From an uncultured Candidatus Saccharibacteria bacterium (GTDB lineage Bacteria > Patescibacteriota > Doudnabacteria > UBA920), in the NCBI GenBank assembly GCA_964512925.1, contig CAZEKH010000005.1, positions 4,325-68,324 on the forward strand: DNA of 64,000 bases, written 5' to 3'. Of the stretch, positions 5,754 through 59,902 are shown piece after piece. Numbering within the stretch: position 1 is the first letter of the stretch; every line of letters begins with the position of its first letter. The notes below the pieces were generated by a model. That model was not told the origin of the DNA and searched no databases. It saw only the letters and a list, made by a program, of their open reading frames with translations. The position numbers and the translations under genes were made by a program.

Positions 5754-5891
5754 TGTCATCCCGGCCAAAGTTAGACGCGAGCCGGGATCCAGGGTTTGTT
5801 ACTATATTTTTGATTCGATAATCACCTTTGGTCGTTGAAATTCGTAAACCATAACCTCACCCCTAACCCCATCTCCCATATGGGAGAGGGG
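5754..5891 (+). repeat. copy A of a ~140-bp direct repeat (5' hairpin ATCCCGG/CCGGGAT, 3' palindromic element CCTCACCCCTAACC + TCTCCCATATGGGAGA)
   Basis: aligns along its length with 6449..6594. Confidence 0.7.
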
Positions 5892-6636: not shown

Positions 6637-8472
6637 TTATCTCGCAGCTCTTTTCCTTTGATTCGGGTCCAGGATTTTTTTGCGGATTCTTATAGACAGG
6701 GGAGTTACTTCCATTAGTTCGTCCGGACCTATATACTCCATCGCAAAGTCCATAGTGACTGGCTTATGCGGGGTTAAGATGATGGCATCGTCTGCGCCTG
6801 AAGATCTCATATTGGTAAGTTTTTTGGTTTTGCAGACATTTAGTTCTATATCTTCGCTTAAAGCGTTTTGCCCGACTACCATACCCTGGTAAACTTCCAC
6901 GGCAGGACCTATAAACAAAGTTCCGCGTTCCTGGGCATTGTTAAGACCGTAAGCGTTCGATGTTCCGCTTTCTGAGGCTATGAGCGATCCGTGGTCGTTG
7001 GCGTGTTCGTCTATCTGGTGAGCTGGTTTGTAGCTGTCAAATAAATTATTCAAAATTACTGTGCCGCGGGTGCGGGTGAGCATCAGGTTTTTAAGGCCAA
7101 TCAGTCCGCGGGTGGGGATCAGATATTCTGCGTGGATTTCTCCGGAAGGAGTGGTTTCCATAGTCTGCAGTTCTCCGCCTCTTTTACCCATTTCTTCTAT
7201 CATCACGCCTTGGTACTCGCTGGGCACATCCACTGTGGCTATTTCATATGGCTCCATCCGCACCCCATTTTCTTCGTGGTAAATAACCTGGGGCTGGGAA
7301 ACCTGGAGTTCAAAGCCTTCACGGCGCATCTGTTCTATAAGAACCGCTAAATGTAGTTCTCCTCGGCCGGAAACTAAAAAGCTTTCCGCGCCTTCGGGCG
7401 ACGGGTCAACTTTCATAGCCACATTGGTTTCCAGCTCCTTGTCCAAGCGGTCGCGGATGTTTCTGGAAGTGACAAACTTTCCTTCGCGGCCCGCAAACGG
7501 GGAAGTGTTTACGCCGAAAGTCATCTTGATGGTAGGCGGCTCTATTTCCACCGGCGGCATAGAAACCGGGTTTTGGATGTCGGTTAAGGTGTCGCCGATA
7601 TGGATGTCGTCAAACCCGCCTATAGAGACAATGTCGCCGGCCACCGCTTCGTCCGCATCCACTTTTTTTAAGCCTTCGTACATCTGGAGGGCGGAAATTT
7701 TACCAGTGGTTTTTTCGCCGTTTGGCTTAACTTGGAGGATATTTTGCGCCTTGCTGATTTTGCCGGAAAATATTTTGCCTATACCCATCCTGCCTTTGTA
7801 GTTGTCGTAAGCCAGAGCTAAGACTTGCAAAGCAAACGGTTTGTCAGTCTCGGCAAAAGGCGCGGGGATGTATTTGATGATAGTTTCAAATAGTGGAGAG
7901 ATGTCAGGGGCAGCAGAATTTTTTATCTTCGCCAACAGGCTTTCCAAATTCAAGTCAGCCAAGCCTTTTACTCCGCTGGCGTAGATGATAGGGAAGTCGG
8001 TCTGTTCGTCATTGGCATTCAGCTTTACGAAGAGGTCAAAAGTTTTATTGATGGTTTCGTCAGGGTTTGAGCCTTCTTTGTCCACTTTGTTTATGACCAC
8101 TATGGCTTTCAGTCCCAGCTGTAAAGCTTTTTTTAAGACGAACTTTGTTTGAGGCATCGGACCTTCTTTGGCGTCAACCAAAAGAAGGACTCCGTCTGCC
8201 ATTTTCAAAGTCCTTTCCACTTCGCCGCCAAAGTCCGCGTGTCCCGGGGTGTCTACAATATTGATCTTTACCCCTTTATACACCAAAGATGCGTTTTTGG
8301 CCTTGATAGTGATCCCGCGTTCTCTTTCCAGATCCATACTGTCCATTATCAAATCCGCGGTGTCGTCATTTTTGACAGTCTGGGTTTGTTTCAGCATAGC
8401 GTCCACCAAAGTGGTTTTGCCGTGGTCAACGTGGGCAATGATGGCGATGTTTCTGATGTTGTCTCTTTTCAT
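6637..8472 (-). CDS. typA: translational GTPase TypA/BipA
   Basis: 611 aa; '[16 protein letters not shown]' G1, DTPGHADF G3, NKVD G4; EF-G-like domain order. Confidence 0.9.
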   Translation of the reverse strand: MKRDNIRNIAIIAHVDHGKTTLVDAMLKQTQTVKNDDTADLIMDSMDLERERGITIKAKNASLVYKGVKINIVDTPGHADFGGEVERTLKMADGVLLLVDAKEGPMPQTKFVLKKALQLGLKAIVVINKVDKEGSNPDETINKTFDLFVKLNANDEQTDFPIIYASGVKGLADLNLESLLAKIKNSAAPDISPLFETIIKYIPAPFAETDKPFALQVLALAYDNYKGRMGIGKIFSGKISKAQNILQVKPNGEKTTGKISALQMYEGLKKVDADEAVAGDIVSIGGFDDIHIGDTLTDIQNPVSMPPVEIEPPTIKMTFGVNTSPFAGREGKFVTSRNIRDRLDKELETNVAMKVDPSPEGAESFLVSGRGELHLAVLIEQMRREGFELQVSQPQVIYHEENGVRMEPYEIATVDVPSEYQGVMIEEMGKRGGELQTMETTPSGEIHAEYLIPTRGLIGLKNLMLTRTRGTVILNNLFDSYKPAHQIDEHANDHGSLIASESGTSNAYGLNNAQERGTLFIGPAVEVYQGMVVGQNALSEDIELNVCKTKKLTNMRSSGADDAIILTPHKPVTMDFAMEYIGPDELMEVTPLSIRIRKKILDPNQRKRAAR

Positions 8473-8490
8473 AGTTTTTCAATATAGTTT

Positions 8491-8528
8491 CCCTCCCCAA
8501 GAGTTGGGGAGGGTCAAGGGAGAGGTTG
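8491..8528. repeat. GC-rich nested palindromic element (CCCTCCCCAAGAGTTGGGGAGGG + TCAAGGGAGAGGTTG)
   Basis: perfect 8-bp inner inverted repeat; same family as 5855, 31889, 32284, 59848. Confidence 0.7.
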
Positions 8529-24725: not shown

Positions 24726-26027
24726 ATGCCGTATTTTGAGATTTTGAAAAAAGCAGAACTCACCCCAGTCCTCTCTTTAGAAAATAGAGGGAGTGATATA
24801 TTCCCCCCCTCTTTAAGCAAAGAGGGCGAAGGGGGAGTTTTGGGAGCTAGGACGGGCATCATCCATACCGCGCACGGGGATATAAAGACCCCGGCGTTTT
24901 TGCCTATTGGCACCAAAGGCGCGGTAAAGGCTGTGACGGCGGAGGAGCTGAAGTTTTGGGGCGCGGACATCATCCTTGCCAATACCTACCACCTTTGGCA
25001 GCGTCCGGGCGACGCTCTCATATATAAAGCCGGGGGGCTGCATAAATTTATGAACTGGCAAGGGCCTATCTTTACTGACTCCGGGGGGTTTCAGGTTTTC
25101 TCGCTCGCAAAAATGAGAAAAGTTTTAGAATTGGGCGTGCTGTTTCAGTTTGATTTAGACGGCAGGCAGGAACTTTTGTCGCCGGAAAAATCCGTTGATA
25201 TCCAAGCTAACTTAGGCAGCGACATCTGCCTCATACTGGATGATTTTCCGGGATATCCTTGGACTTATGAGCGAAGCAAAGAATCCATTGAGCTTACAAA
25301 CCGTTGGGCTGAAAGGGCGATAAAGGAGCATAAGAGAATAGTGACTGATGGCGACCCCATTAACCCCGGCCAAAAGCTGTGGGGGATAGTTCAGGGCGCA
25401 TCTTTTCCGGACTTAAGGGAAATGTCGGCTAAAGCAATGGTTCAGTTTGGATTTGAAGGCTTTGCCATTGGCGGCGTGGCCGTGGGCGAACCTCACGAGG
25501 AGATGATGAAAGCTGTGGAGGTTACCATACCGCATTTACCGGAAAATGCCCCAAAACATCTTTTGGGCGTCGGAACGCCTTTTGACATTGTTCAGGCAGT
25601 AGCGCGTGGCTGCGATACTTTTGACTGCGTGATCCCGACTAGGGAAGCTAGGCATGGAAGACTCTATATAAATAACAAATATCAAATTTCAAATAACAAA
25701 GCAGACAACCTCTCCCTTTCTCCCTCCCCTCATGAGGGGAGGGAAGGGGTGGGGTTGCAGTTTGAAGGCTATAGTACCATCAATATCTTCAACGAAAAGT
25801 TTAAAGAAGATTTTTCCACCATAGACGATCAGTGCGATTGCTATTTGTGCCAGAACCATACCAAGTCTTACCTTAGACATTTGTTTCAAACTGGCGAGCC
25901 TTTGGCGACAAGGCTTGCAACTATGCACAACCTGAAATTTTATTTAAACTTAATGGCTAAAATCAGGAAATCCATCCAATATGATTATTTTGATGAGATG
26001 GTCTTAAACTACAAAGAAATTAAATAG
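24726..26027 (+). CDS. tgt: queuine tRNA-ribosyltransferase carrying two inserted palindromic elements
   Basis: 433 aa; 'LANTYHL', 'DSGGFQV', 'GFAIGG', Zn site CxCxxC..H (DDQCDCYLCQNH...HL). Confidence 0.85.
   Translation: MPYFEILKKAELTPVLSLENRGSDIFPPSLSKEGEGGVLGARTGIIHTAHGDIKTPAFLPIGTKGAVKAVTAEELKFWGADIILANTYHLWQRPGDALIYKAGGLHKFMNWQGPIFTDSGGFQVFSLAKMRKVLELGVLFQFDLDGRQELLSPEKSVDIQANLGSDICLILDDFPGYPWTYERSKESIELTNRWAERAIKEHKRIVTDGDPINPGQKLWGIVQGASFPDLREMSAKAMVQFGFEGFAIGGVAVGEPHEEMMKAVEVTIPHLPENAPKHLLGVGTPFDIVQAVARGCDTFDCVIPTREARHGRLYINNKYQISNNKADNLSLSPSPHEGREGVGLQFEGYSTINIFNEKFKEDFSTIDDQCDCYLCQNHTKSYLRHLFQTGEPLATRLATMHNLKFYLNLMAKIRKSIQYDYFDEMVLNYKEIK
24757..24840. repeat. nested palindromic element inside tgt codons ~12-39 (CCCCCCCTCTTTAAGCAAAGAGGGCGAAGGGGGAG with outer arms AACTCACCCC/GGGGGAGTT)
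   Basis: ~84 nt, multiple of 3, encodes LTPVLSLENRGSDIFPPSLSKEGEGGVL absent from Tgt orthologs as remembered. Confidence 0.65.
25706..25757. repeat. nested palindromic element inside tgt (CAACCTCTCCC..CCCTCCCCTCATGAGGGGAGGG..AGGGGTGGGGTTG)
   Basis: perfect 8-bp inner arms, ~11-bp outer arms; lies in a ~36-aa segment extra relative to E. coli Tgt. Confidence 0.65.
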
Positions 26028-28467: not shown

Positions 28468-29635
28468 ATATCCTATTTTAGTAAAGAAAAAAGAAAACCT
28501 GGCCTATTTGACTGGCGAGGTTTTTGATTTGCGGACACAGGAGTATCTTTTGGTAAAACCGCTGAAGTACGCGGATAAACGCGGAAGCTATACAGGGGTT
28601 GTTGGGTTTGGCAGCGGTCTGGAAAAAATTTCCTGGGCGCCAAAGTCGGACACTTTATACAACATCGGAAAATATGTGAAAGGCTATGAGAAGTTAAATC
28701 TTGAATATGGGTTTACTTTGGGGGAACATAAGTACATAAAAAGCAAGATCAAGAATTTGAGATTGCAGGTAAAAGTCCAGCCGGAACATTCTCCGGTGGA
28801 TGAGATAAGGCAGATAAAGACCCCGGATGAAATATTGAAGATTAAAAAATCAATGGAAATAGTTAAACAGGTATACAAGTATACTAGGAAGCAAGCGGTG
28901 AAGAGCGGGATGACGGAAGCAATTTTGGCAAAATACATTGAAAATTTGGGTTTAAAGTTGGGGGCAGGCGAGCTGGCGTTTCCGGCCATAGTAGCAAGCG
29001 GTAAGAACGCGGCAATGCCACACCACGTACCTACGAAAAAAAGGTTGAAGCCGGGTGAAAGCATTATTTTGGATTTTGGTTTTTTGGCCGGAGGCCAATC
29101 CGCCACTGGCGGAAAATCTTCATCTAACTACTGCAGCGATTTTACTCGTACGGTTTTTATCAAAAAAGTTCCAAAAAAGCTGGAAATAGCTTATAATCAG
29201 GTGGAGAAAGCTTATTTAGGGAGTATGGAATACATTAACTCCCCCAACCCCCGCCCGAACGCCGCAGGCGGGCAGGCCTCTTTGAAAAAGAGGGAAAAAT
29301 TCACCATCTCCTCCTCTTTGACAAAGAGGAGGCAGGGAGGAGTTCGTGCAGAGGGTGTTTACCAAAAATCAGTCGAGATTTTAGCCGAAAAAAAACTGGA
29401 TAAATATTTTATCCACTCGCTTGGCCATGGTACCGGCCTTGAGATCCACGAAAGGCCTTATTTGGGTCCAAAGTCAAAAGACATTTTAAAAGAAGGAATG
29501 GTTTTCAGTATAGAACCTGGCGTGTATTTTCCCGAGTATGGAGGGGTTCGGATAGAAGATTTGGTCTATATGGAAAATGGAAAAGTAAAAAAATTTATAG
29601 AAGTACCAACAGATTTAAAGTCTAATATTTTATGA
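28427..29635 (+). CDS. M24 family metallopeptidase (Xaa-Pro aminopeptidase-like) with in-frame palindromic insertion; start uncertain (ORF opens at 28346)
   Basis: 'HSLGHGTGLEIHERP', 'FSIEPGVY', 'VRIEDLV' M24 metal-ligand motifs. Confidence 0.65.
   Translation: MEHQRLRQLQQEIKYPILVKKKENLAYLTGEVFDLRTQEYLLVKPLKYADKRGSYTGVVGFGSGLEKISWAPKSDTLYNIGKYVKGYEKLNLEYGFTLGEHKYIKSKIKNLRLQVKVQPEHSPVDEIRQIKTPDEILKIKKSMEIVKQVYKYTRKQAVKSGMTEAILAKYIENLGLKLGAGELAFPAIVASGKNAAMPHHVPTKKRLKPGESIILDFGFLAGGQSATGGKSSSNYCSDFTRTVFIKKVPKKLEIAYNQVEKAYLGSMEYINSPNPRPNAAGGQASLKKREKFTISSSLTKRRQGGVRAEGVYQKSVEILAEKKLDKYFIHSLGHGTGLEIHERPYLGPKSKDILKEGMVFSIEPGVYFPEYGGVRIEDLVYMENGKVKKFIEVPTDLKSNIL
29237..29344. repeat. composite palindromic element inside the M24 peptidase gene (three hairpins: CCGCCCG..CGGGC, CCTCTTTGAAAAAGAGG, CCTCCTCTTTGACAAAGAGGAGG; outer arms AACTCCCCC/GGGAGGAGTT)
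   Basis: 108 nt (36 codons) encoding NSPNPRPNAAGGQASLKKREKFTISSSLTKRRQGGV. Confidence 0.65.
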
Positions 29636-30611: not shown

Positions 30612-31877
30612 ATGATATTTACGAAAAAAGTTTTACCTAACGGTTTAAAGGTTATCGAAGTGCCGTCTAGTGACGCGGAAAGCGTGGTAGTGGATTTTTT
30701 TGTAAAGACCGGTTCGCGTTCGGAGACAGAAAAAGAAAATGGTATTTCCCATTTTCTTGAACATTTTTTGTTTAAAGGTAGTAAAAAGTATCCGACAGCA
30801 ATGGCTATTTCTTCCTTGGTTGACTCCATAGGCGGGGAAATGAATGCCAACACAGGTAAAGAACATACCCAGTTTTATATCAAAGCTGCCAGTAGGCATT
30901 TTAAACTGATATTTGAAGTTCTGACCGATATGATTCAAAACCCGCTTTTAGACCCAGCAGAATTGGAGCGGGAAAAAGGCGTGATAGTTGAAGAGATAAA
31001 TATGTACAAAGACACGCCAATGTACGAGATAGAAAATATACTGGAAGGGCAGATGTGGCAGGGGGACGCTTTAGGCAGGGACATTGCTGGAACCAAAGAA
31101 ACTGTGACCAAGTTTACCAGGGAAATGTTTTTAGACTATATAAATAGGCACTATCAAACTCCAAATATGCTGCTTGGGGTTTCCGGTAGCTACGATAAAA
31201 AAGTTTTAAATGATTTGATAAGCAAGTATTGGAAAAATTATCCGAAAAATAAATTTCATAATTGGACTAAAGCAGTAGACAGTCAAAATCAATATCGTCT
31301 GAAGGTTCAGTTTAAAGAAACCGAACAGGCGCACTTGGCATTAGGTTTCAAAGGTTTTAAATATGGAGACAAAAGAAACGCGGCGCAGTCTGTTCTTTCA
31401 GCCATACTGGGCGGCGGTATGTCCTCAAGGCTTTTTTCCGAAGTTAGGGAAAAAAGGGGCCTTGCTTACTATGTCCGTGCCAGCGGCGGGTCTTACCAGG
31501 ATACCGGCGTTTTTAACATTGGAGCTGGGGTGCAAATACCTAAAATAGAAGAAGCTATAAAAGTCATTTTAGACGAACTTGAAAAGATAAAAAGCATAAA
31601 AGTAGAAGACGCGGAACTTAAAAAAGCCAAAGAATTTATAAAAGGAAAATCGGCTTTGGCGTTAGAAGACAACCAGGTGCGCTTGGACTGGTTTTTGGAA
31701 GCCGCAGCTTTTAAGCCGGAAATCTTAACCCCCAAAGAAGCCTTTGCAAAAATAGACAAAGTAACTGCCTCAGACGTGCAAAAAGTTGCCAAAGATTTGT
31801 TTCAAAAAGAAAAACTGACTTTAGCGGTCATAGGGCCATATAAGGACGAGAAGGTTTTTGATAAATTAATAAAATAG
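30612..31877 (+). CDS. M16 family zinc peptidase (insulinase-like)
   Basis: 421 aa; inverted zinc motif 'HFLEHFLFKGS' (HxxEH). Confidence 0.8.
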   Translation: MIFTKKVLPNGLKVIEVPSSDAESVVVDFFVKTGSRSETEKENGISHFLEHFLFKGSKKYPTAMAISSLVDSIGGEMNANTGKEHTQFYIKAASRHFKLIFEVLTDMIQNPLLDPAELEREKGVIVEEINMYKDTPMYEIENILEGQMWQGDALGRDIAGTKETVTKFTREMFLDYINRHYQTPNMLLGVSGSYDKKVLNDLISKYWKNYPKNKFHNWTKAVDSQNQYRLKVQFKETEQAHLALGFKGFKYGDKRNAAQSVLSAILGGGMSSRLFSEVREKRGLAYYVRASGGSYQDTGVFNIGAGVQIPKIEEAIKVILDELEKIKSIKVEDAELKKAKEFIKGKSALALEDNQVRLDWFLEAAAFKPEILTPKEAFAKIDKVTASDVQKVAKDLFQKEKLTLAVIGPYKDEKVFDKLIK

Positions 31878-31888
31878 TTGTTAAATTT

Positions 31889-31925
31889 CCTCTCCAAGTT
31901 TGGAGAGGGGTTAGGGGAGAGGTTG
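31889..31925. repeat. nested palindromic element (CCTCTCCAAGTTTGGAGAGG + GGTTAGGGGAGAGGTTG) whose 3' arm supplies the SD for the next gene
   Basis: GGGGAGAGG ends 7 nt before the ATG at 31930. Confidence 0.65.
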
Positions 31926-31929
31926 TTGT

Positions 31930-32277
31930 ATGAAACGCAAGCCATATTTAGTACATAACGCAAAAAATTTAAGAACGCGTTCAACTATATGGGAAACAAA
32001 ACTTTGGCAATATTTGAGAGGCGGTAGATTTTTTGATTATAAATTTAAAAGACAAGTTGCTATAGAAAAGTATATCGTAGATTTTTGTTGCAATGAAAAA
32101 AAGTTGATCATTGAGTTGGATGGGAGTGGATATCAATTTTCAGAAAAAGATAAAATTCGTGATAAATTTTTTGAAGGGCTAGGTTATAAAATCTTACGTA
32201 TTTGGAATAATGATATTGACAATAATTTTGACGGGGTTCCATTAAGAATTAAACAAAATTTCGATGAAAAAAAATAA
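31930..32277 (+). CDS. DUF559/Vsr-like endonuclease-domain protein
   Basis: 115 aa; 'FKRQVAIEKYIVDFCC...LIIELDGSGY...RDKFFEGLGYKILRIWNND' matches the DUF559 restriction-endonuclease-like fold pattern. Confidence 0.6.
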   Translation: MKRKPYLVHNAKNLRTRSTIWETKLWQYLRGGRFFDYKFKRQVAIEKYIVDFCCNEKKLIIELDGSGYQFSEKDKIRDKFFEGLGYKILRIWNNDIDNNFDGVPLRIKQNFDEKK

Positions 32278-32283
32278 ACAAAA

Positions 32284-32329
32284 ACAACCTCTCCAGGCCT
32301 CCGGCCACCCTCCCCAAACTTGGGGAGGG
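32284..32329. repeat. palindromic element (CAACCTCTCCAGGCCTCCGGCCA + CCCTCCCCAAACTTGGGGAGGGG) immediately 5' of nfo
   Basis: GGGGAGGGG arm lies ~9 nt upstream of the ATG giving MAVGCHVSAAGG. Confidence 0.65.
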
Positions 32330-32338
32330 GAAAGCGGT

Positions 32339-33388
32339 ATGGCTGTGGGTTGTCATGTTTCTGCGGCAGGCGGAGTGTGGAATGCGCCGAAGAATGCAAA
32401 GGATTTAAACTGCGAAACTTTCCAGATATTTACCCGTCCGCCTATGGGCGGACCTGCGCCGAAAATAGACCAGGAGGGAGTAGAGAAATTTAAGATGGAG
32501 ATGGAGAAGTATTATTCTTCATTCCATACAGAAGATGCAGAACCCCTCCCAACCTCCCCTTTGGTAAAGGGGAGGGGTAAGGTAGGTTCCCCCTCTTTTT
32601 CAAAGAGGGGGTTAGGGGGAGTTGGTTTTGTTGTTCACTGCCCGTACATTGTAAATTTTGGTTCAGCAAAGAAAACTACTTTTCACGGATCTATTTCTAT
32701 AGTTTCTGAAGAACTAAAAAGGGCTAATTCGCTTGGAGCTCGGTTTGTTATGACTCACTTAGGCAGCTTTAAGGATTTGGGCCAGGAAAAAGGTATGGTG
32801 CAGGCGCAAAAAGGTTTGGAAGAGGTTTTAAAAAAGTACGAAAGTTCTATAAAAAACAAACAGCCCTCCCAATTTCTTTTAGAGATAGCGGCAGGACAAG
32901 GTGAAGTTATAGGTGATACTTTTGAGGAACTGGCCGAGCTTATGGAGCCGCTAAAAAAATACAAAACTTTCGGGGGAATCTGCTTTGACACTCAGCATGC
33001 TTGGTCTTCGGGATATGATATAACCAAAAGCGAATGGGTAAAACAATTTGAGAAGACTATTGGCCTAAAATGGCTGCGGATGAGCCATATAAACGACTCT
33101 AAAGTTGATTTAGGCGGCAAAAAAGACCGTCACGAGCATATTGGCGAGGGGAAGATAGGAGAAAAGGGGATATATAATTTTATTCGAAATTTAAAATTGA
33201 ACCTGCCTGTCGGCAAGGCAGGGATTGAAGATTTAAACACCCTCTCTACCCGAAGCGGGTCCCTTCTCTCCCAGAAGGGAGAGATTAATAATGTTGTCTT
33301 TGACTCTTTTGCCTTGATTTTAGAAACTGAACATGATAAAGTGAAAACAGACATAAAAATCTTAAAAAAATTAAGGGAAAAAATATAA
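32339..33388 (+). CDS. nfo: endonuclease IV (AP endonuclease family 2) with two in-frame palindromic insertions; longer ORF opens at 32264
   Basis: 'VGCHVSAAGGV', 'ICFDTQHAWSSGYD', 'RMSHINDSK..DRHEHIGEGKIG', 'ALILETE' match Nfo metal-ligand blocks. Confidence 0.8.
   Translation: MAVGCHVSAAGGVWNAPKNAKDLNCETFQIFTRPPMGGPAPKIDQEGVEKFKMEMEKYYSSFHTEDAEPLPTSPLVKGRGKVGSPSFSKRGLGGVGFVVHCPYIVNFGSAKKTTFHGSISIVSEELKRANSLGARFVMTHLGSFKDLGQEKGMVQAQKGLEEVLKKYESSIKNKQPSQFLLEIAAGQGEVIGDTFEELAELMEPLKKYKTFGGICFDTQHAWSSGYDITKSEWVKQFEKTIGLKWLRMSHINDSKVDLGGKKDRHEHIGEGKIGEKGIYNFIRNLKLNLPVGKAGIEDLNTLSTRSGSLLSQKGEINNVVFDSFALILETEHDKVKTDIKILKKLREKI
32541..32625. repeat. double-hairpin element inside nfo (CCTCCCCTTTGGTAAAGGGGAGG and CCCCCTCTTTTTCAAAGAGGGGG)
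   Basis: 85 nt encoding PLPTSPLVKGRGKVGSPSFSKRGLGGVG between conserved KY..S and (I/V)xxH..Y(L/I)xN(L/F)G blocks. Confidence 0.7.
33201..33288. repeat. triple-hairpin element inside nfo (CCTGCC..GGCAGG, ACCCGAAGCGGGT, TCTCTCCCAGAAGGGAGAGA)
   Basis: ~88 nt encoding LPVGKAGIEDLNTLSTRSGSLLSQKGEI, extra relative to E. coli Nfo between GEGxIG and ILETI blocks. Confidence 0.6.
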
Positions 33389-33896: not shown

Positions 33897-33955
33897 AACA
33901 AAACCCCCTCCTAGCCTCCCCCATTTAGGGGAGGAAGGGTATAGGGGTTTTTGTT
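33897..33955. repeat. long imperfect palindromic element (AAAACCCCCTCCTAGCCTCCCCCATTTAGGGGAGGAAGGGTATAGGGGTTTT) followed by T-run; probable terminator
   Basis: inner CCTCCCCC/GGGGGAGG arms, outer AAAACCCC/GGGGTTTT arms. Confidence 0.55.
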
Positions 33956-35535: not shown

Positions 35536-37131
35536 ATGAATAGATTTTACCTTACAACCACCCTTCCATACGTAAATTCAGACCCTCACTTGGGGTTTGC
35601 TTTGGAAATGGTTTTGGCGGACACAATAGTTCGGTTTCAAAAATTGCAGGGTAAGGAAGTTTTTTTTAATACAGGCACAGACGAGCATGGTCTTAAGATA
35701 TATCAAAAAGCTTTAGAACGAGGTATAAGCCCAAAAGAGTACTGCGACGAATATGCAGAAAAATTTAAACAGCTGATGCCAGCTTTGGGGGTTTTGCCGG
35801 AGATACATTTCATACGCACCACGGACGAACACCATATAAAAGCCTGTCAGGAGTTTTGGAAACTGGTAGATAAAAATGGCTACATAGAAAAGAAAAATTA
35901 TAAGGTCAAATATTGCGTTGGCTGCGAGCTGGAAAAAACTGAAAGCGATCTGTCAGAAGAAGGAAAATGTTTAGTGCACCCGCATTTGGAAATAGAGATT
36001 CGCGAAGAGGAAAATTATTTTTTTAAGTTTAGCGCTTTCCAAAAACCGCTTTTAGAACTTTATGAAAAACAGCCGGATTTTGTTGTGCCGGATTTTCGGT
36101 TTAACGAGATTAGAGAGTTTGTAAAAAATGGACTTTCTGACTTTTCTATCTCGCGGCTTAAAGAAAAAATGCCCTGGGGCGTGCCTGTGCCGGGCGACGA
36201 CAACCACGTTATGTATGTCTGGTTTGACGCGCTTATAAACTATGTTTCAACGTTGGGTTGGCCAGAATACCACCCCTTTAATTCCCCTCCTATTTTAGGA
36301 GGGGAGGGCCAGAATGGCGGGGAGGTTAGTAATTTATTTCAAGAATTCTGGGGGACAAAAGAAAACCCTAACGGAATACAAATTGCAGGCAAGGACAACC
36401 TCCGTCAGCAGTCTGCTATGTGGCAGGCAATGCTTATGGCTGCGGGCCTGCCGAACAGTAAACAAATCATCATCCACGGCTTTATTAACTCCGGGGGGCA
36501 GAAAATGTCCAAATCTTTGGGCAATGTAGCGGATCCTTATAAAATAATTGAAGATTTAAAAATAAAAGGATTGAATAAACAACAGGCGACAGACGCGCTT
36601 CGGTATTATTTACTCAAAGAAATTCCTACTTTTGAAGACGGGGACTACACTTGGGATAGGTTTTTGGAAGTCTATAACTCCGACCTTGCCAACGGCATTG
36701 GCAACCTAACAAGTAGGATTTTGAAAATGAGCATAGCTAATTCAATTTTTCTCTCTCCAGGCGTGGAGAGAGTCCCCGACTCGTCCGCCAAAGCTTTAGC
36801 GGAGGAGGAAGGGGGAGAGAGGTCGCATGATAGTAATTCCCCAAACGATCAAAAAATTAAAGAGTTTATTTCCTCTTACCACTTAAAACTCGCTCTTGAA
36901 GAAATCTGGAAAGATATAAAATTCTGCGATGAATACATTCAAAAAGAAGAACCATTTAAAGTCGTTAAAGTAGACCCGGAAAAAGCAAAAAAGCAGATAG
37001 AGTTTTTACTTGGTAAACTAAAAGAGATAGCAGAAAACCTGCAGCCGTTTTTACCAGACACTTCCCAGCAAATAACAAACAGTTTAAAACCGCTTTCGGG
37101 AGAAATTCCACGGTTGTTTCCGAGGATATAA
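35536..37131 (+). CDS. metG: methionine--tRNA ligase (short form) with two in-frame palindromic insertions
   Basis: 531 aa; 'TTTLPYVNSDPHLG' HIGH-type motif, 'KMSKSLGNV'. Confidence 0.9.
   Translation: MNRFYLTTTLPYVNSDPHLGFALEMVLADTIVRFQKLQGKEVFFNTGTDEHGLKIYQKALERGISPKEYCDEYAEKFKQLMPALGVLPEIHFIRTTDEHHIKACQEFWKLVDKNGYIEKKNYKVKYCVGCELEKTESDLSEEGKCLVHPHLEIEIREEENYFFKFSAFQKPLLELYEKQPDFVVPDFRFNEIREFVKNGLSDFSISRLKEKMPWGVPVPGDDNHVMYVWFDALINYVSTLGWPEYHPFNSPPILGGEGQNGGEVSNLFQEFWGTKENPNGIQIAGKDNLRQQSAMWQAMLMAAGLPNSKQIIIHGFINSGGQKMSKSLGNVADPYKIIEDLKIKGLNKQQATDALRYYLLKEIPTFEDGDYTWDRFLEVYNSDLANGIGNLTSRILKMSIANSIFLSPGVERVPDSSAKALAEEEGGERSHDSNSPNDQKIKEFISSYHLKLALEEIWKDIKFCDEYIQKEEPFKVVKVDPEKAKKQIEFLLGKLKEIAENLQPFLPDTSQQITNSLKPLSGEIPRLFPRI
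36268..36327. repeat. palindromic element inside metG (CCCCTCCTATTTTAGGAGGGG) flanked by 8-bp direct repeat GCCAGAAT
   Basis: encodes FNSPPILGGEGQNGGEVS; GCCAGAAT at ~36261 and ~36309. Confidence 0.6.
36749..36822. repeat. composite element inside metG (CTCTCTCCAGGCGTGGAGAGAG, CCGCCAAAGCTTTAGCGG, G-rich tail AGGAGGAAGGGGGAGAGAGG)
   Basis: 74 nt encoding LSPGVERVPDSSAKALAEEEGGERS. Confidence 0.55.
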
Positions 37132-38163: not shown

Positions 38164-39219
38164 TTGTCAATGCTAATCGACACCCACGCTCACATTAACT
38201 TTAAAGCTTATGAAGACGACGCAGAGGAAGTTTTGCGCAGGGCTTTTGAGAGTGGGGTTATGGTTATAAACGTGGGGACGCAGTTGGACACTTCAGAGCA
38301 GTCTGTTAGGCTTGCTGAGAGGTACTCTAAAAAAAATATCCCTCCTCACTCCTCCCTTAATTTAAGGGAGGAAGCAGCACAATTACCCCCTCTTAAGGTA
38401 AGAGGGGGTCAGGGGGGTGATATTAAGGCGGTTTATTCCGTAGTTGGACTTCATCCCGTTCATACTTACTCCCAGCACGTAGACGAAGAAGAGAGTCATT
38501 TTAAAACGCGGGAAGAAAAGTTTGACTATGAGGCGTATAAAAAATTGGCACAAAATGATTTGGTGGTGGGGATTGGGGAATGTGGACTTGATTATTTTAG
38601 ATTGAAGATTGATGATTTAAGATTGCCAATAGAACAAATTAAAGAAAATCAGAAACAGGCATTTATGCAACAGGTGAGGCTGGCAAAGGAACTAAACAAA
38701 GCTTTGGTCATACACTGTAGGCCTTCGGAGGGGACGAGTGATGCGTATGAAGATATACTGGCAATTCTGGATTCAGAATTGCAAATTTCAAATATCAAAT
38801 TACAAAATTCAACAAACTCCGCTACACCCTCTACCCTAAACCCTAATCCCTTTCGTTTTGAGATCCACTCTTTTACTGGTACCCCCGACATAGTCCAAGA
38901 GTTTTTAAAGCGTGGCGCGTATGTGGGGCTAAATGGTATAATTACATTCGGAGACCGAAAATCAAAAAATATAGCGACGTCCGCCTCGGGCGGAGATAAG
39001 AGTGGAAACATGGACAATGTTTTGAAAACTGTCCCTTTAGACCGTATTGTCCTTGAAACTGACAGCCCGTATCTTACGCCAAAACCAAACCGGGGCAAAA
39101 GAAACGAGCCTTCCTATGTCCGTTTTGTTGCCGAACATATTGCTCAAGTAAAAAATATAGATTTTGCCCAAGTCGAAGAGCAAACCACAAAAAACGCAAT
39201 TAATTTGTTTAAGTTATAA
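38164..39219 (+). CDS. tatD: TatD-family metal-dependent DNase/hydrolase with in-frame palindromic insertion
   Basis: 351 aa; 'IDTHAHIN', 'VGLHP', 'IGECGLDY', 'ALVIHCR', 'LETDSPYL' TatD blocks. Confidence 0.8.
   Translation: MSMLIDTHAHINFKAYEDDAEEVLRRAFESGVMVINVGTQLDTSEQSVRLAERYSKKNIPPHSSLNLREEAAQLPPLKVRGGQGGDIKAVYSVVGLHPVHTYSQHVDEEESHFKTREEKFDYEAYKKLAQNDLVVGIGECGLDYFRLKIDDLRLPIEQIKENQKQAFMQQVRLAKELNKALVIHCRPSEGTSDAYEDILAILDSELQISNIKLQNSTNSATPSTLNPNPFRFEIHSFTGTPDIVQEFLKRGAYVGLNGIITFGDRKSKNIATSASGGDKSGNMDNVLKTVPLDRIVLETDSPYLTPKPNRGKRNEPSYVRFVAEHIAQVKNIDFAQVEEQTTKNAINLFKL
38335..38424. repeat. nested double-hairpin element inside tatD (CTCCCTTAATTTAAGGGAG, CCCCCTCTTAAGGTAAGAGGGGG; outer arms AATATCCCTCC/GGGGGGTGATATT)
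   Basis: 90 nt = 30 codons encoding KKNIPPHSSLNLREEAAQLPPLKVRGGQGGDIKA between RYS and VYSVVGLHP. Confidence 0.7.
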
Positions 39220-39774: not shown

Positions 39775-42393
39775 ATGTCAAGTAGATATAATCCACAGAA
39801 AATTGAAACTAAGTGGCCCTCCTACGCTAAAGCTACGAAGGGCAGGCAAAAGGTTTCTAAATATAAACCCCAGGAAATTGAACGTAAGTGGCAGTCACTG
39901 TGGTTTAAGAAGAAGCCTTTTTCTGCTGTGGAAAATAAGAGAAAGAAAAAATACATTTTAGTTGAGTTTCCTTACCCTTCGGGAGCGGGTTTACATATGG
40001 GGCACTTAAGGCCGTATGTGGCGGCAGATGTAACTGCTAGGTTTTTGCGCCTTACCGGGCATGAGGTTTTGTTTCCTATGGGCTGGGACGCGTTTGGGCT
40101 GCCGGCGGAAAACTACGCCATAAAAATGGGAGTGCACCCGACCATAACCACCAAGAAAAATGTGGCGAACGCAAAAAAACAAATGTTGTCGTGGGGGCTT
40201 TCTTTTGACTGGAAAAGGGAGATAAACACAACTGACCCTAACTACTACAAATGGACGCAGTGGTTGTTTTTGCAATTTTTCAAAAAAGGTTTGGCGTTTG
40301 AAAAAACCGGACTTATAAACTGGTGTCCAAAAGACAAGACAGGGCTTGCCAACGAAGAAGTAATAGACGGCAAATGCGAACGCTGCGGAACAGTAGTTGA
40401 AAAAAAAGAACTTCGCCAATGGTACCTAAAAATCACAGACTACGCTGAGAAATTATTAGCTGGTCTAAAGGATTTAACCGAATGGCCTGAAGCAGTCAAG
40501 CTTCAGCAGGAAAATTGGATAGGGAAAAAGACGGGCATAAACATTACATATGAGATTGAAGGTAAAAACAAAACAATAACTTGTTTTACCACGCGTCCTG
40601 ATACTAATTTTGGCGCAACTTTTATCGTTATTGGTCCTGAGCATCCTTTGATACAGCAAAATGAACTTGGTATTCAGAACTATGACGAAGTTAAAAGGTA
40701 TATCGAAAAAGCAAAGGAACAGACTGAGCAAGACAGGACTGCGGAGAATCGCAAAAAAACAGGAGTCTTTACTGGGCTATATTGCATAAATACTTTAAAT
40801 AACTACAAGATGCCTTTGTATGTAGCAGATTATGTTCTTGGAAATGTGGGCACAGGGGCTGTGGTCGGGGTGCCTGGGCACGACAAACGGGATTTTGAGT
40901 TTGCGCAAGTTTTTGGTATTGAAGTAAAAAGAGTTGTGCAAAAAAATGTAGACGATACTGGAATTATTGACCATATAGACAAGGTTCAAGAAGAAGAAGG
41001 GAAGATGGTAAATTCCGGTTTCTTAAATGGGCTTGATATTCACGAGGCCACTGAGAAAATAATGGACTATATGGAAAGTGAGGGTTATGGTAAAAGAGTT
41101 ACCAACTACAAACTCCGTGACTGGGTGTTTTCGCGCCAGCGTTACTGGGGAGAGCCGATACCTTTAATTCATTGCGATCCGCCAGCTGGCGGATGTGGCG
41201 TTGTGGCTGTACCGGAAAAAGATTTACCGGTTAAACTTCCAAATGTAAAAAAATACGAACCGACGGGAACAGGAGAGTCGCCGCTGGCTGGCATAGACAA
41301 ATGGGTAAATACCAAATGCCCGAAGTGCAAAGGCCCGGCTAAAAGGGAAACCAACACCATGCCTCAGTGGGCGGGCAGCTCGTGGTATTGGCTTAGGTAT
41401 TTGGACCCTAAAAATACCAAAACTTTTTCCGACATAAAAAAACAGAAATATTGGACACCGGTAGATGTGTATTTTGGCGGGATGGAACACACGACTTTAC
41501 ATTTGCTTTATTCACGTTTTTGGAATTTGTTTTTATACGACCAAAAGCTGGTTACAGAAAAAGAACCTTACAAGAGGCGTTTTCCGCACGGGATAATTTT
41601 GGGCCCAGATGGGGAAAAAATGTCTAAGAGTAGAGGCAACGTGGTGGATCCGCAGAAATTGGTCAAAGAATTTGGCGCTGACGCGGTACGTATGTATCAG
41701 CTGTTTTTAGGTCCTCACGGGGATATGATTGCTTGGAATGACCAGGGGATAGTCGGAGTGAAAAGGTTTTTGGATAGAGTTTGGAGTTGGGCACAGCAAT
41801 TGAATATTGAAGATATAAGATTGAAGATTGTAGACAGTGAGATAGTAGAACGGGAGATAAACAAACTGGTTAAGAAAATCACTGAGGACTTGGAAGCAAT
41901 GCGGTTTAATACCTGTATTTCGGCTTTTATGTCGTTTTTAAATGAAGTCAAAGACGAGCAAGTGTCTTTAGAAACAGTTAGAAAGTTTTTGATTCTTTTG
42001 AGCCCGTTTGCGCCGCATATTGCTGAAGAACTACTTGAGAGAGTTAGAGAGTTAGAGAGTAAGAGGGTGAGTAGATCAGTTAATCAGACAATCAGTAAAT
42101 CAGAAAGTCAGAAAGTCAAAACAAAACTCCCTCCAACCCCCTCTTTGTCAAAGAGGGGGAGCAAGGGGGAGTTCGCAGAGTGGCCTCAGTGGGACGAGAG
42201 TAAAATTTTAGAAGCTACAGCAGAGATCATCGTCCAGGTTAACGGCAAAGTCAAAGGCAAGGTAGTTGTGCCAAACCAAAGCAGTGAAGAAGTGGTAAAA
42301 GAAGCTATGCTGAAACTCCCGCAGTTTTCGTCTCTTGGTGAAATAAAAAGAACAATCTATGTGCCCAATAGACTTATTAACTTAGTTATTTAG
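39775..42393 (+). CDS. leuS: leucine--tRNA ligase; start uncertain (ORF opens at 39667)
   Basis: 'PYPSGAGLHMGHLRPY' HIGH motif, 'GEKMSKSRGNVVDP' KMSKS, CP1 editing domain, C-terminal 'QVNGKVKGKVVV'. Confidence 0.9.
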   Translation: MSSRYNPQKIETKWPSYAKATKGRQKVSKYKPQEIERKWQSLWFKKKPFSAVENKRKKKYILVEFPYPSGAGLHMGHLRPYVAADVTARFLRLTGHEVLFPMGWDAFGLPAENYAIKMGVHPTITTKKNVANAKKQMLSWGLSFDWKREINTTDPNYYKWTQWLFLQFFKKGLAFEKTGLINWCPKDKTGLANEEVIDGKCERCGTVVEKKELRQWYLKITDYAEKLLAGLKDLTEWPEAVKLQQENWIGKKTGINITYEIEGKNKTITCFTTRPDTNFGATFIVIGPEHPLIQQNELGIQNYDEVKRYIEKAKEQTEQDRTAENRKKTGVFTGLYCINTLNNYKMPLYVADYVLGNVGTGAVVGVPGHDKRDFEFAQVFGIEVKRVVQKNVDDTGIIDHIDKVQEEEGKMVNSGFLNGLDIHEATEKIMDYMESEGYGKRVTNYKLRDWVFSRQRYWGEPIPLIHCDPPAGGCGVVAVPEKDLPVKLPNVKKYEPTGTGESPLAGIDKWVNTKCPKCKGPAKRETNTMPQWAGSSWYWLRYLDPKNTKTFSDIKKQKYWTPVDVYFGGMEHTTLHLLYSRFWNLFLYDQKLVTEKEPYKRRFPHGIILGPDGEKMSKSRGNVVDPQKLVKEFGADAVRMYQLFLGPHGDMIAWNDQGIVGVKRFLDRVWSWAQQLNIEDIRLKIVDSEIVEREINKLVKKITEDLEAMRFNTCISAFMSFLNEVKDEQVSLETVRKFLILLSPFAPHIAEELLERVRELESKRVSRSVNQTISKSESQKVKTKLPPTPSLSKRGSKGEFAEWPQWDESKILEATAEIIVQVNGKVKGKVVVPNQSSEEVVKEAMLKLPQFSSLGEIKRTIYVPNRLINLVI
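42036..42173. repeat. composite insertion in leuS 3' region: tandem GAGAGTTA and AATCAG/AAGTCAG repeats followed by nested palindrome AACTCCCTCC..CCCCCTCTTTGTCAAAGAGGGGG..GGGGGAGTT
   Basis: encodes ERVRELESKRVSRSVNQTISKSESQKVKTKLPPTPSLSKRGSKGE between conserved APHIAEEL and WPxWDE blocks. Confidence 0.65.
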
Positions 42394-48739: not shown

Positions 48740-48893
48740 AAATCTATGCAAAGAAATTTTTCCCACAACCTCATTATTTCTCTCCCGGTCGTCAAGACCT
48801 GGGTGTTTAAAATGCGGGGTAGTGTGGGAAAGAAAAGATAACAGTAGTATAAGTAAAGTTTCCACACCATACCCCGCAAAGAGCGGGTTTTTT
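48740..48893 (+). ncRNA. candidate ~150-nt small RNA between the consensus promoter and an intrinsic terminator (identity unknown)
   Basis: no credible ORF or SD; TTTCCCACAACC pairs GGTAGTGTGGGAAA with alternative partner TTTCCACACC; terminator CCCCGC-AAAGA-GCGGG + T7 at 48871..48893. Confidence 0.35.
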
Positions 48894-49010
48894 TCTGGGT
48901 AAGAGAAACTTAGAGAAATAGAATGTTAGAGAATTAGAGAGATAGAGTGTTAGAGAGGAAGAAAGTTAGCAAAGTAGATAAAATGAACTTTAAAAATTTT
49001 TTGTAGTTTT

Positions 49011-49128
49011 ACCCCCTCTCCCGTGTGGGAGAGGGTTGGGGTGAGGTTTCAGCGATGGTAATAAAACCAAGGTTTGTTATTATCAAACATTATTACCTCA
49101 CCCTAGCCCTCTCCGTGATCGGAGAGGG
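49011..49128. repeat. symmetric composite of two palindromic elements in opposite orientation around an AT-rich inner hairpin
   Basis: CCCTCTCCCGTGTGGGAGAGGG+TTGGGGTGAGGT ... ACCTCACCCTAGC+CCTCTCCGTGATCGGAGAGG. Confidence 0.65.
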
Positions 49129-49475
49129 AATCTGAAAAAGGCTTGAAATATTTATTATTTGTTCTTTAAAACTTAACACCAACCGCCCACAAAAGTTTTT
49201 CCAACAATTGATTTACTGATTATCAGATATTCTGATCAACTTGGAACTTCTTTTGTGTGCAGTCCGTTTGTTTTTATTTCTTTTCCTCCCGCTGGTCGGG
49301 ACGGACACAAGATGGAATCTCATTCCAAAGCACATAAAAACAAAAAAGGCACACGAAAGTTTGGGCAGATCTTGGCTTACCAGCCACTAAAAAATCCCGT
49401 TTTCAAAATTCGGGATTCTGCCCATAGCTATCCGGGCCGCGCAATTTGCTGGCCCATTCGTTCGAGGAGGAAAAA

Positions 49476-49679
49476 GTGGATAGACCAAAGGCATCCACGG
49501 GTGTTGGTCAAAAATTTTGTCAAAGTTGTCGTAGAACTTCAACTTTCATCACCGTGCAAGGTGACGGACATGAGATTGAAGTTTGTGAAAACTGTTTGAC
49601 AAACGGCGAACCAATATCTAGATTCAACGATCCGGATTATGCTTCGGATGTATCGGCCATGAGACTAATCATGGTCTAA
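49476..49679 (+). CDS. hypothetical small zinc-ribbon protein (GTG start after GGAGG SD)
   Basis: 67 aa; CQSC..(17)..CENC; locally GC-rich patch. Confidence 0.3.
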   Translation: MDRPKASTGVGQKFCQSCRRTSTFITVQGDGHEIEVCENCLTNGEPISRFNDPDYASDVSAMRLIMV

Positions 49680-49808
49680 CCAGCAACAGACTTAAAGAGC
49701 AAGTACTTGGGTAGTACCCTGCAATTATACCGCTCTTCAGGTCTTAACCCCGGGGTTCACCAGCTGACCACCATCGGCTAGTGGATCCCGGGCCACTCAA
49801 TTTTTTCT

Positions 49809-49846
49809 TCCTCTCCGTTATCGGAGAGGGTAGGGTGAGGTAACGG
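49809..49846. repeat. palindromic element (CCTCTCCGTTATCGGAGAGG + GTAGGGTGAGGTAACGG)
   Basis: same family, reverse orientation. Confidence 0.65.
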
Positions 49847-50013
49847 ACTCAAAATTCAAATCAGATTTATAAATCATTTAAACTTAAAATCCCCATTTTG
49901 GTTGGGAATGACGGAAAAAACATAAAAATTTCATACCCCCAAAAACCTATTAAATTTTTTGATAAGTTCTTGGGCGCATGAAAGCGCTCGATATTGGTTT
50001 TGTTGGAGGAACA

Positions 50014-50169
50014 ATGAGTGACACTAAACCGCAGGAGCCTGCAATTCGCGCCACAAATAAGGGTCTTAAAAAACCCCGACCACATTACGAGGTCGTAGTA
50101 CACCCGGAAACCCGGAGTGTGGATGTGATCCTAAAACCGTGCGAAGAATGCAAAACCTGCAAGACCTGA
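50014..50169 (+). CDS. hypothetical small Cys-rich protein (C-terminal CEECKTCKT)
   Basis: 51 aa from internal ATG with GGAGGAACAATG SD; followed by strong terminator. Confidence 0.35.
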   Translation: MSDTKPQEPAIRATNKGLKKPRPHYEVVVHPETRSVDVILKPCEECKTCKT

Positions 50170-50179
50170 CAGGTTTTTA

Positions 50180-50252
50180 GGCAGAGCCGCTACTAATTTA
50201 GTCTTTCTTAGACTTTTTTAGCAGAGGCTCTGCCACTATTTTTTTTATTTTT
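50180..50252 (+). terminator. long nested hairpin GGCAGAGCC..AGTCTTTCTTAGACT..GGCTCTGCC followed by T-rich run
   Basis: 9-bp outer stem + inner palindrome + TTTTTTTTATTTTT. Confidence 0.55.
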
Positions 50253-50262
50253 AAATTCGGGT

Positions 50263-50294
50263 GTCAAACTAGTCACATATGTGACTAGTTTGAC
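50263..50294. promoter_or_regulatory. perfect 32-bp palindrome GTCAAACTAGTCACATATGTGACTAGTTTGAC
   Basis: fully self-complementary; architecture shared with 46814..46849. Confidence 0.4.
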
Positions 50295-50308
50295 AGAGGT
50301 TGGGTTTT

Positions 50309-50330
50309 TGGTTGGGATGCTTTGGAATCC
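50309..50330 (-). pseudogene. degenerate copy of the tRNA-Pro 3' terminus
   Basis: TTTTTGGTTGGGATGCTTTGGAATCC vs tRNA TTTCTATGGTCGGGATGCTGGGAATCG. Confidence 0.4.
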
Positions 50331-50452
50331 TTTTCGCTGCGACTCGTAGCCGGGGCGTTATACTCAAGCATTCCAAATAGTCGTGCTTTTCTCATGCACT
50401 TCGATTCCAATAATTTTTATACCAAATAAAAAATACCGAAATTATTTCGGTA

Positions 50453-59847: not shown

Positions 59848-59884
59848 CAACCTCTCCCTGGCCCTCCCCAGGTCTTGGGGAGGG
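59848..59884. repeat. nested palindromic element (CAACCTCTCCCTGG + CCCTCCCCAGGTCTTGGGGAGGG) 18 nt upstream of fusA
   Basis: perfect 8-bp inner inverted repeat. Confidence 0.7.
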
Positions 59885-59902
59885 AAACTATAAAGCAAAT
59901 CT

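Follow-up and report, generated by a model that had tools for sequence, protein, structure and literature searches.

The region considered here lies within a 64 kb stretch of DNA (hereafter the window) from a member of Candidatus Doudnabacteria (Patescibacteria), where a short ORF for a DUF559 nuclease stands between a gene for an M16 peptidase and nfo (Table 1). The M16 stop codon (TAG, 31875-77) is followed by the spacer ttgttaaattt and then by a hairpin of the form CCTCTCCAA-gt-TTGGAGAGG, whose 9-nt arms (31889-97/31900-08) are 100% complementary according to the repeat finder. On its 3' side come ggtta, the block GGGGAGAGG, ttgttgt and the DUF559 start codon, an ATG at 31930 that is consistent with the N-termini of homologues in the alignment. 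The 9-bp hairpin forms in both the MFE and centroid RNA folds of the local sequence, and a preliminary description of this DNA was thus right in placing a hairpin between the M16 peptidase and DUF559 genes. It had also pointed to a Shine-Dalgarno (SD)-like block 7 nt before the ATG; such a block is indeed present, with GGGGAGAGG ending at 31922 and ttgttgt intervening, and this is the only exact match to GGGGAGAGG in the whole 64 kb window. This block had been taken for the hairpin's own 3' arm, but it is a separate third block lying 3' of the hairpin. The repeat finder also offers the C-arm a second pairing option, at 31916-22.

Table 1. Features of the M16-nfo junction and triplex-type repeat units elsewhere in the window
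Feature	Coordinates	Strand	Evidence
M16 peptidase gene, upstream neighbour	30612..31877	+	Pfam PF00675, PF05193
Hairpin of 5' unit: C-arm CCTCTCC(AA), loop, G-arm (TT)GGAGAGG	31889..31908	+	repeat finder, RNA folds
G-box GGGGAGAGG, mirror block of triplex unit, SD-like	31914..31922	+	7/7 purine-motif triads with G-arm
Left terminal inverted repeat GGAGAGGTTGTT	31916..31927	+	12-nt exact inverted repeat with 32284-32295
DUF559 nuclease ORF, Vsr-like PD-(D/E)xK, 115 aa	31930..32277	+	Pfam PF04480, E 1.7e-33
Right terminal inverted repeat AACAACCTCTCC, C-box 32289-32295	32284..32295	+	pairs with 31916-31927 in whole-cassette fold
Remainder of inverted 3' unit: expanded loop 2 AGGCCTCCGGCCA (mini-hairpin), hairpin CCCTCCCCAA/TTGGGGAGGG at 32308-32329	32296..32329	-	
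nfo, endonuclease IV family (AP-endonuclease-2)	32339..33388	+	Pfam PF01261, ortholog N-termini
Two units in frame within nfo, EPLPTSPLVKGRGKVGSPSFSKRGLGGVG	32540..32624	+	26.7 bits, 9/9 triads
Gene-less inverted pair, 45-nt centre, architecture as in the DUF559 cassette	49013..49129		37.5 + 28.9 bits, 8/8 triads each
Dispersed unit copy	5854-5890	-	covariance model, weakest, 5/6 triads
Dispersed unit copy	8491..8526	+	covariance model
Dispersed unit copy	25708-25756		covariance model
Dispersed unit copy	33902-33937	-	covariance model
Dispersed unit copy	38386-38421		covariance model
Dispersed unit copy	42124-42159	-	covariance model
Dispersed unit copy	49808-49843	+	covariance model
Dispersed unit copy	59849-59884	-	covariance model

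What had been described as a 'palindromic element' is one unit of the BoxC/PIT/TM family of potential intrastrand (purine-motif) triplex repeats. The blocks CCTCTCC, GGAGAGG and GGAGAGG succeed one another at 31889-31922, the third mirrors the purine arm so that triads are possible at all seven positions, and loop 2 contains a TTA core. The unit also has dispersed relatives, in that a covariance model of 33 instances (27 from upstream of DUF559 in unrelated metagenomes and 6 from the window or Doudnabacteria) recovers 13 units in the 64 kb window at E <= 0.02, including an inverted pair at 49013-49129. The unit at 31888-31923 ranks third in the window (32.7 bits, E 5e-5), a score that is not independent, since this unit and three others from the window, to whose scores the same applies, were training sequences. 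Comparison of the G-box with the G-arm over 32 asymmetric arms favors a mirror relationship in 18 and a direct copy in 2, with 12 ties, and a mirror score as high as the observed one was reached in 0 of 2000 permutations of the arm/box pairing. A G-quadruplex formed by the G-arm and G-box was considered and rejected, as it leaves the mirrored A/T positions unexplained.

Oligonucleotides of the E. coli version, TM_ECO, form an intrastrand purine-motif triplex in vitro, as seen by CD and NMR (Holder et al., 2015; PMC4666352), and intrastrand triplex motifs of this kind have also been treated elsewhere (Hoyne and Maher, 2000). There are 23 BoxC/PIT/TM_ECO copies in MG1655, and the motif is found in >260 genomes; loop 2 is TTA in type A and CCG in type B, with five inverted A+B pairs in MG1655 (PMC4666352). 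The same survey reports that PIT/BoxC have no promoter or terminator activity in E. coli, that there are no mobility genes near the copies and that purine triplexes do not form in RNA, and its text makes no mention of an endonuclease or ycjD (PMC4666352). The window units share with these repeats the C-rich arm, the G-rich arm and the mirror G-rich block, the G·G:C and A/T·A:T triads and the TTA loop 2 of type A, as well as dispersed occurrence, inverted pairs whose partner has a different loop 2 and conservation in distant bacteria. They differ in their shorter arms (7-9 nt), in their CPR host and in their density (~0.14-0.2 units per kb versus 23 copies per 4.6 Mb). Moreover, many of the window copies are in-frame insertions within coding sequences, a contrast to E. 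coli, where all copies are reportedly intergenic, and the units bracket a DUF559 gene, an association absent from that survey (PMC4666352). The unit at the locus has arms of only 7 nt (CCTCTCC), and its loop 2 can be read either as 7 nt long or as a TTA with two unpaired G·G steps; it does not fit the strict TM_ECO consensus (CCCTCNCCC N3-6 GGGNGAGGG N3 GGGNGAGGG), and on this comparison it is BoxC-like and not TM_ECO proper. Rfam searches returned no family at gathering thresholds for the whole window, or at E <= 10 for 31800-32400.

A cassette of ~440 bp (31889-32329) has the 5' unit as its left terminal inverted repeat, DUF559 as its sole gene and an inverted unit as its right end. An exact inverted repeat as long as that between GGAGAGGTTGTT and AACAACCTCTCC was reached in 0 of 2000 shuffles, and the entire 5' flank of DUF559 can be aligned to the reverse complement of its 3' flank. 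The partner unit on the 3' side (32284-32329) has an expanded loop that includes CCGG, as opposed to the TTA loop of the 5' unit. The likely start of nfo, at MAVGCHVS, comes 8 nt past the 3' unit's G-arm; were the in-frame ATG at 32264 used instead, the ORF would run through that unit.

Comparison with 80 related loci collected via the M16 gene points to the history of this arrangement. In 17 Doudnabacteria loci the M16 and nfo genes overlap or directly adjoin each other (gap -5 to +5 nt), and one of these loci (L051) encodes an M16 protein with 81% identity to that of the window; in the window the gap is 461 nt and contains the units and DUF559. Therefore, the units and DUF559 constitute one derived insertion, the cassette having entered a formerly overlapping M16-nfo junction. 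The idea that the element 'donates' a signal to a resident gene consequently has to be given up, as DUF559 and both units belong to a single inserted cassette. Among the relatives, DUF559 is polymorphic for presence or absence both at this junction and at another site, just ahead of the M24 peptidase gene, where most of the DUF559 matches in the Doudnabacteria loci are found. All ten of these matches are bracketed by units, in the order hairpin, G-box, TTGT/TTGCAT/TCGT, ATG...stop, (t)aCAA, C-box and hairpin. One related locus (L014) has the identical hairpin, GGGGAGAGG, tcgt and ATG, followed by a truncated DUF559. Conversely, two loci (L046 and L047) have two inverted units with a centre of just 14 nt and lack DUF559; in L047 an ATG lies 4 nt past the G-box, in frame through the right unit into nfo.

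The M16-nfo junction (31878-32338 in the window; L003-L075 among the relatives) is an insertion hotspot in Doudnabacteria, and the other inserts seen there are HicA/HicB-like (toxin-antitoxin-like) gene pairs, Nudix or glyoxalase-like genes, or units alone. In two relatives (L012 2031-2600; L009 ~2180-2700) an inner DUF559 cassette is nested between an outer G-box-TTGC and an outer GCAA-C-box-hairpin, which looks, from the order of the blocks, as if a cassette had been inserted into the centre of a pre-existing inverted pair.

Within the window, a scan for pyrimidine/purine hairpins yields ~20 similar sites. The complete form of the unit is C-box, C-arm, loop, G-arm and G-box, but numerous copies are reduced to three blocks, either those on the right or those on the left. 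Antiparallel G·G:C and A/T·A:T triads are possible at 7-9 of 7-10 positions in 12 of the 13 covariance-model units, the exception being the weakest one (Table 1). The insert in nfo is missing in the closest orthologs, and different inserts occur at the same loop in other relatives. The inverted pair consists of a + unit at 49013-49048 and a - unit at 49094-49129, and possibly represents an 'empty' cassette; together with the gene-less pairs of L046 and L047 it is, by its architecture, a candidate empty homing site. It is located in a stretch of ~1.5 kb (48880-50380) with three units in all (the third at 49808-49843 on the + strand), for which neither a convincing ORF nor an Rfam match was found.

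Other copies occur in coding sequences or shortly before start codons. Units lie in frame within the housekeeping genes for TGT, an M24 peptidase, nfo, MetRS, TatD and LeuRS, at 24803-24839, 25708-25756, 29308-29344, 32540-32624, 36283-36321, 38337-38421 and 42124-42173. At two further places, 8473-8526 (gene 6637-8472, - strand) and 59849-59902 (EF-G, 59903), a C-box plus hairpin unit ends 18 nt before an ATG, and is followed in both by a shared GGGGAGGGAAACTATA(A/T)(A/T)G....CT-ATG with a TATAAA/TATATT box 8 nt before the start.

The bracketing of DUF559 extends far beyond Doudnabacteria. An alignment scan of metagenomes for DUF559 gave 80 loci of 31-71% GC, in which units were called at a covariance-model E <= 0.01. 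Of the 80, 39 have a '+' unit no more than 100 nt ahead of the projected start and 46 have an inverted '-' unit where the ORF ends, with these downstream units lying outside the training set of the model; both are present in 31 and either in at least 54. The units are sharply concentrated next to the gene: 41 '+' units fall in the first 100 nt upstream against 3, 5, 0, 0, 0 and 0 in the bins farther out, and 45 '-' units in the first 100 nt downstream against 1, 2, 0, 0, 0 and 1. A cross-check with a sequence-only nhmmer profile, which is less sensitive, recovers the units at 32 and 37 loci as against 39 and 46 by the covariance model. The inverted bracket around DUF559 ORFs thus spans many phyla, with a variable distance from the start. 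Several database DUF559 ORFs have N- or C-terminal extensions (e.g. PLSRPGEGQGRG, SPHPSPTPGEGV) that are translated units. In viral contigs, units were found at only 2 of 19 DUF559 loci, with no sign of phages as the vehicle.

In E. coli, the DUF559 gene ycjD ends in CCCTCTCCC-TGA and has a model-positive unit ~170 nt downstream; the corresponding 70-mer has a median copy number of 17 among E. coli genomes. In K-12 (L163; NC_000913.3 1351040-1351830), ycjD is followed by a duplicated DUF559 3' fragment and then by the BoxC/TM unit. Before its GTG start there is a 14-bp hairpin of other sequence, whose 3' arm ends in GAGG.

DUF559, typified by E. coli YcjD, is to our knowledge a very widespread nuclease-fold domain without a known function, and we know of no activity of any DUF559 protein on triplex repeats. 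Profile searches match the domain to the structures PDB 3HRL (E 1e-33) and I-Bth0305I (3R3P; E 4e-6). A role in defence was considered and set aside, as the only matches are marginal ones, in the nuclease domains at the C-termini of Hhe and ProA. At codon 68 the window copy has Tyr in place of the His of the ELDGxxH motif, which is found in 29 of 30 homologues and in each of the seven other Doudnabacteria copies, and a 3-residue deletion lies adjacent to it; the other invariant residues (D51, E62, D64, R41 and Q42) are retained. The window copy may thus be catalytically dead or decaying. DUF559 is truncated or split in two of the related loci (L014 and L016).

The preliminary description had proposed that the element gives DUF559 an SD sequence in a window where most genes have no recognizable one. 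The second part is borne out: with an SD core defined as >=5 nt situated 3-14 nt before the start, 3 of the 60 window genes of >=100 aa have one, versus 2.8% of random 25-mers, and SD use in the window is at background, the upstream regions of its genes being AT-rich. Across the Doudnabacteria lineage there is a weak enrichment (7.2% versus 2.9%; 401 ORFs). Two of the three genes with a core are DUF559 and nfo, both element-derived, and the 'SD' of nfo lies within a 10-bp stem.

The first part stands only in a qualified form. On its side, the G-box is the sole SD-like sequence near the DUF559 start; its spacing is canonical (6-7 nt in the window, with GAGGT 6 nt from the ATG); and GAGGT and GGAG match the canonical anti-SD, which may not be the host's own 16S tail (no rRNA was found in the window or in 163 loci). 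In the local RNA fold, moreover, the G-arm occupies the C-arm and so leaves the box unpaired, and 12 of 41 unit-to-ORF-start distances fall within 0-14 nt. Against it, the box is a conserved structural block of the unit, and in the RNA fold of the whole cassette (MFE -126.9 kcal/mol, z = -5.7) it is engaged in a 12-bp helix with the C-box. Of 10 Doudnabacteria DUF559 cassettes, 8 have a spacing of 4-7 nt between G-box and ATG, but the C-box is placed equally tightly on the 3' side, 5-10 nt past the stop, and therefore compaction alone could explain the 5' spacing. Across phyla, the distance from box to start varies between -5 and 63 nt, with a median of 15, and an SD of its own frequently stands between the two. 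Relatives without the elements, which the preliminary description had suggested as a comparison, have no equivalent SD before the neighbouring nfo or M24 genes, and where the cassette is present a G-arm lies 4-11 nt before the nfo or M24 start. The G-box owes its presence mainly to its membership of the repeat unit. Given the variable spacing across phyla, the mirror-placed C-box and the pairing in the full-length fold, SD function would be only a plausible secondary role of the box in the compact CPR version of the cassette, and on these comparisons we regard the case for it as evenly balanced.

We are moderately inclined to the following overall explanation: a DUF559 cassette delimited by triplex units, with a G-box that derives from the repeat and probably doubles as a portable ribosome-binding site, and with a link between nuclease and repeat. 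In the compact Doudnabacteria cassettes the G-box would be positioned at a distance from the ATG suited to this role. In RNA, where purine triplexes reportedly do not form, the C-arm would be locked by the G-arm, so that the G-box would stay single-stranded while the mRNA is being made and could probably serve as the ribosome-binding site of the cassette gene in a host that otherwise hardly uses SDs. Once transcribed, the 3' C-box could pair with the G-box and shut the site. The nuclease, for its part, would probably recognize or process the units on either side of it and so act as a selfish module of the RAYT-like or homing type; such an activity on the units would explain why gene and repeat travel together. 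This functional link is no more than an inference.

The chief competitor is that the G-box is purely a by-product, i.e. only a third-strand and terminal-repeat block, whose SD likeness is incidental because any GGAG-rich purine block resembles an SD, with DUF559 being translated, if at all, independently of an SD. This has a substantial claim, though we hold it somewhat doubtful: it accords with the background frequency of SD cores in the window, with the variable spacing across phyla and the separate SDs where the box is distant, with the mirror C-box abutting the stop and the pairing of the box in the full-length fold, and with the lack of a regulatory role for the E. coli copies according to Holder et al. 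(PMC4666352) and Maher et al. It sits less well with the consistent 4-7 nt spacing in Doudnabacteria, with the mild but real SD enrichment of the lineage and the free box in the local fold, and with the element-borne nfo start in L047. If, alternatively, the window DUF559 were a decaying and untranslated remnant, the translation signal would be irrelevant. The Tyr in place of the near-invariant His, the adjacent deletion and the truncated or split copies in L014 and L016 lean that way; however, the ORF is intact and of full length, keeps all its other invariant residues and is found with identical sequence in two further assemblies, making this unlikely.

Two readings that bypass the SD question appear still weaker. 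A role of the hairpin in terminating transcription after the M16 gene, or in insulating DUF559 from it, is suggested by its GC-rich 9-bp stem 11 nt past the M16 stop, but there is no U-tract, a terminator scan was empty at the site and PIT/BoxC have neither terminator nor promoter activity in E. coli (PMC4666352), which renders it highly improbable. We attach the least credence to leaderless translation, with a promoter that starts the mRNA at or near the ATG and leaves the SD unused, which the preliminary description had named as a finding that would count against its claim. There is a weak promoter-like match (TTGATA-18-TAAATT, 31858-31887), but 42 nt separate the end of its -10 box from the ATG, and the leader would hence carry both hairpin and box; no -10 box places an mRNA start at the DUF559 ATG, and the promoter count is not above that of shuffled sequences (3 versus 2.2 expected). 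As for leaderless initiation as a genome-wide norm, -10-like boxes 5-10 nt before starts are common by eye, but they are not enriched once AT-richness is controlled for (9 of 60 versus 16% of shuffled upstream regions), and we rejected it.

Returning to the cassette with a nuclease-repeat link, several known systems offer parallels. The REP/REPIN-RAYT systems, reportedly described by Nunvar in 2010 and by Bertels and Rainey in 2011, likewise have a small nuclease-type gene between inverted copies of the genome's own short, structured repeat, which is dispersed singly or in inverted pairs. However, DUF559 is a Vsr-like PD-(D/E)xK domain and not an IS200/IS605-like HUH/Y1 transposase, and a triplex-type unit takes the place of the REP hairpin with its GTAG foot; the cassette is therefore an analogue of these systems and not a member. 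I-Bth0305I (PDB 3R3P, 'mobile intron protein') is comparable in its related catalytic domain, its selfish nature and its presence or absence at fixed sites, but DUF559 stands alone in a cassette between genes, outside any intron. The Rickettsia palindromic elements (RPEs), said to have been described by Ogata in 2000, are similarly short palindromic repeats that lie in frame in housekeeping genes, are tolerated in surface loops and vary between close relatives; their sequence family is unrelated, and they have no associated nuclease gene. Finally, some mobile elements provide the genes next to them with expression signals, as do IS elements through their outward promoters, or Correia elements. 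As in these, an inserted repeat ends up giving a cis signal at a gene start; in contrast to them, the candidate signal is a putative ribosome-binding site, and it would serve the cassette's own gene.

BoxC, for which Bergler's work of 1992 is reportedly the source, is said to have been first seen beside envM/fabI, though we found no support in the literature for a box C next to envM. BoxC/PIT/TM repeats have been known since the 1990s from hundreds of genomes, form a triplex in vitro and mark unstable loci, and no associated gene or spreading mechanism had been identified for them, the 2015 survey having explicitly found none. A search of the literature on DUF559, ycjD, CPR repeats and BoxC/PIT turned up no report of an association between DUF559 and triplex repeats. 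We consider the phylum-spanning bracketing of DUF559 by inverted triplex units, which we could not find reported, to be the more interesting result, as it links two orphans, namely a nuclease domain without a function and a repeat without a gene, and turns both questions into simple experiments. The SD question is less important by comparison; at most, it concerns a mobile cassette that brings its own start signal into an SD-poor host. Going further, we tentatively offer, with more reservation than conviction, a wider scenario in which DUF559 (YcjD-type) would be the long-missing partner enzyme of BoxC/PIT/TM, and inverted units plus the nuclease gene would form a minimal selfish cassette. This could spread by homing into gene-less pairs or by RAYT-like mobilization of units and would carry its own ribosome-binding site in the inward G-box, with solo units colonizing coding sequences in frame in the CPR.

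The units also bear on annotation. In-frame repeat insertions in CPR housekeeping genes are flagged by the present analysis, and the units account for the spurious extensions of the 'PLSPxGEG' type that DUF559 proteins and their neighbours carry. Gene callers run the nfo and DUF559 ORFs through them, giving rise to low-complexity extensions such as QPLQASGHPPQTWGGESG, PLSRPGEGQGRG and SPHPSPTPGEGV, which are probably annotation artefacts; the gene calls affected are those at 32264-32338 in the window and in two related loci (L001 and L002), and the proteins P0007, P0021, P0028, P0039, P0045, P0066 and P0092.
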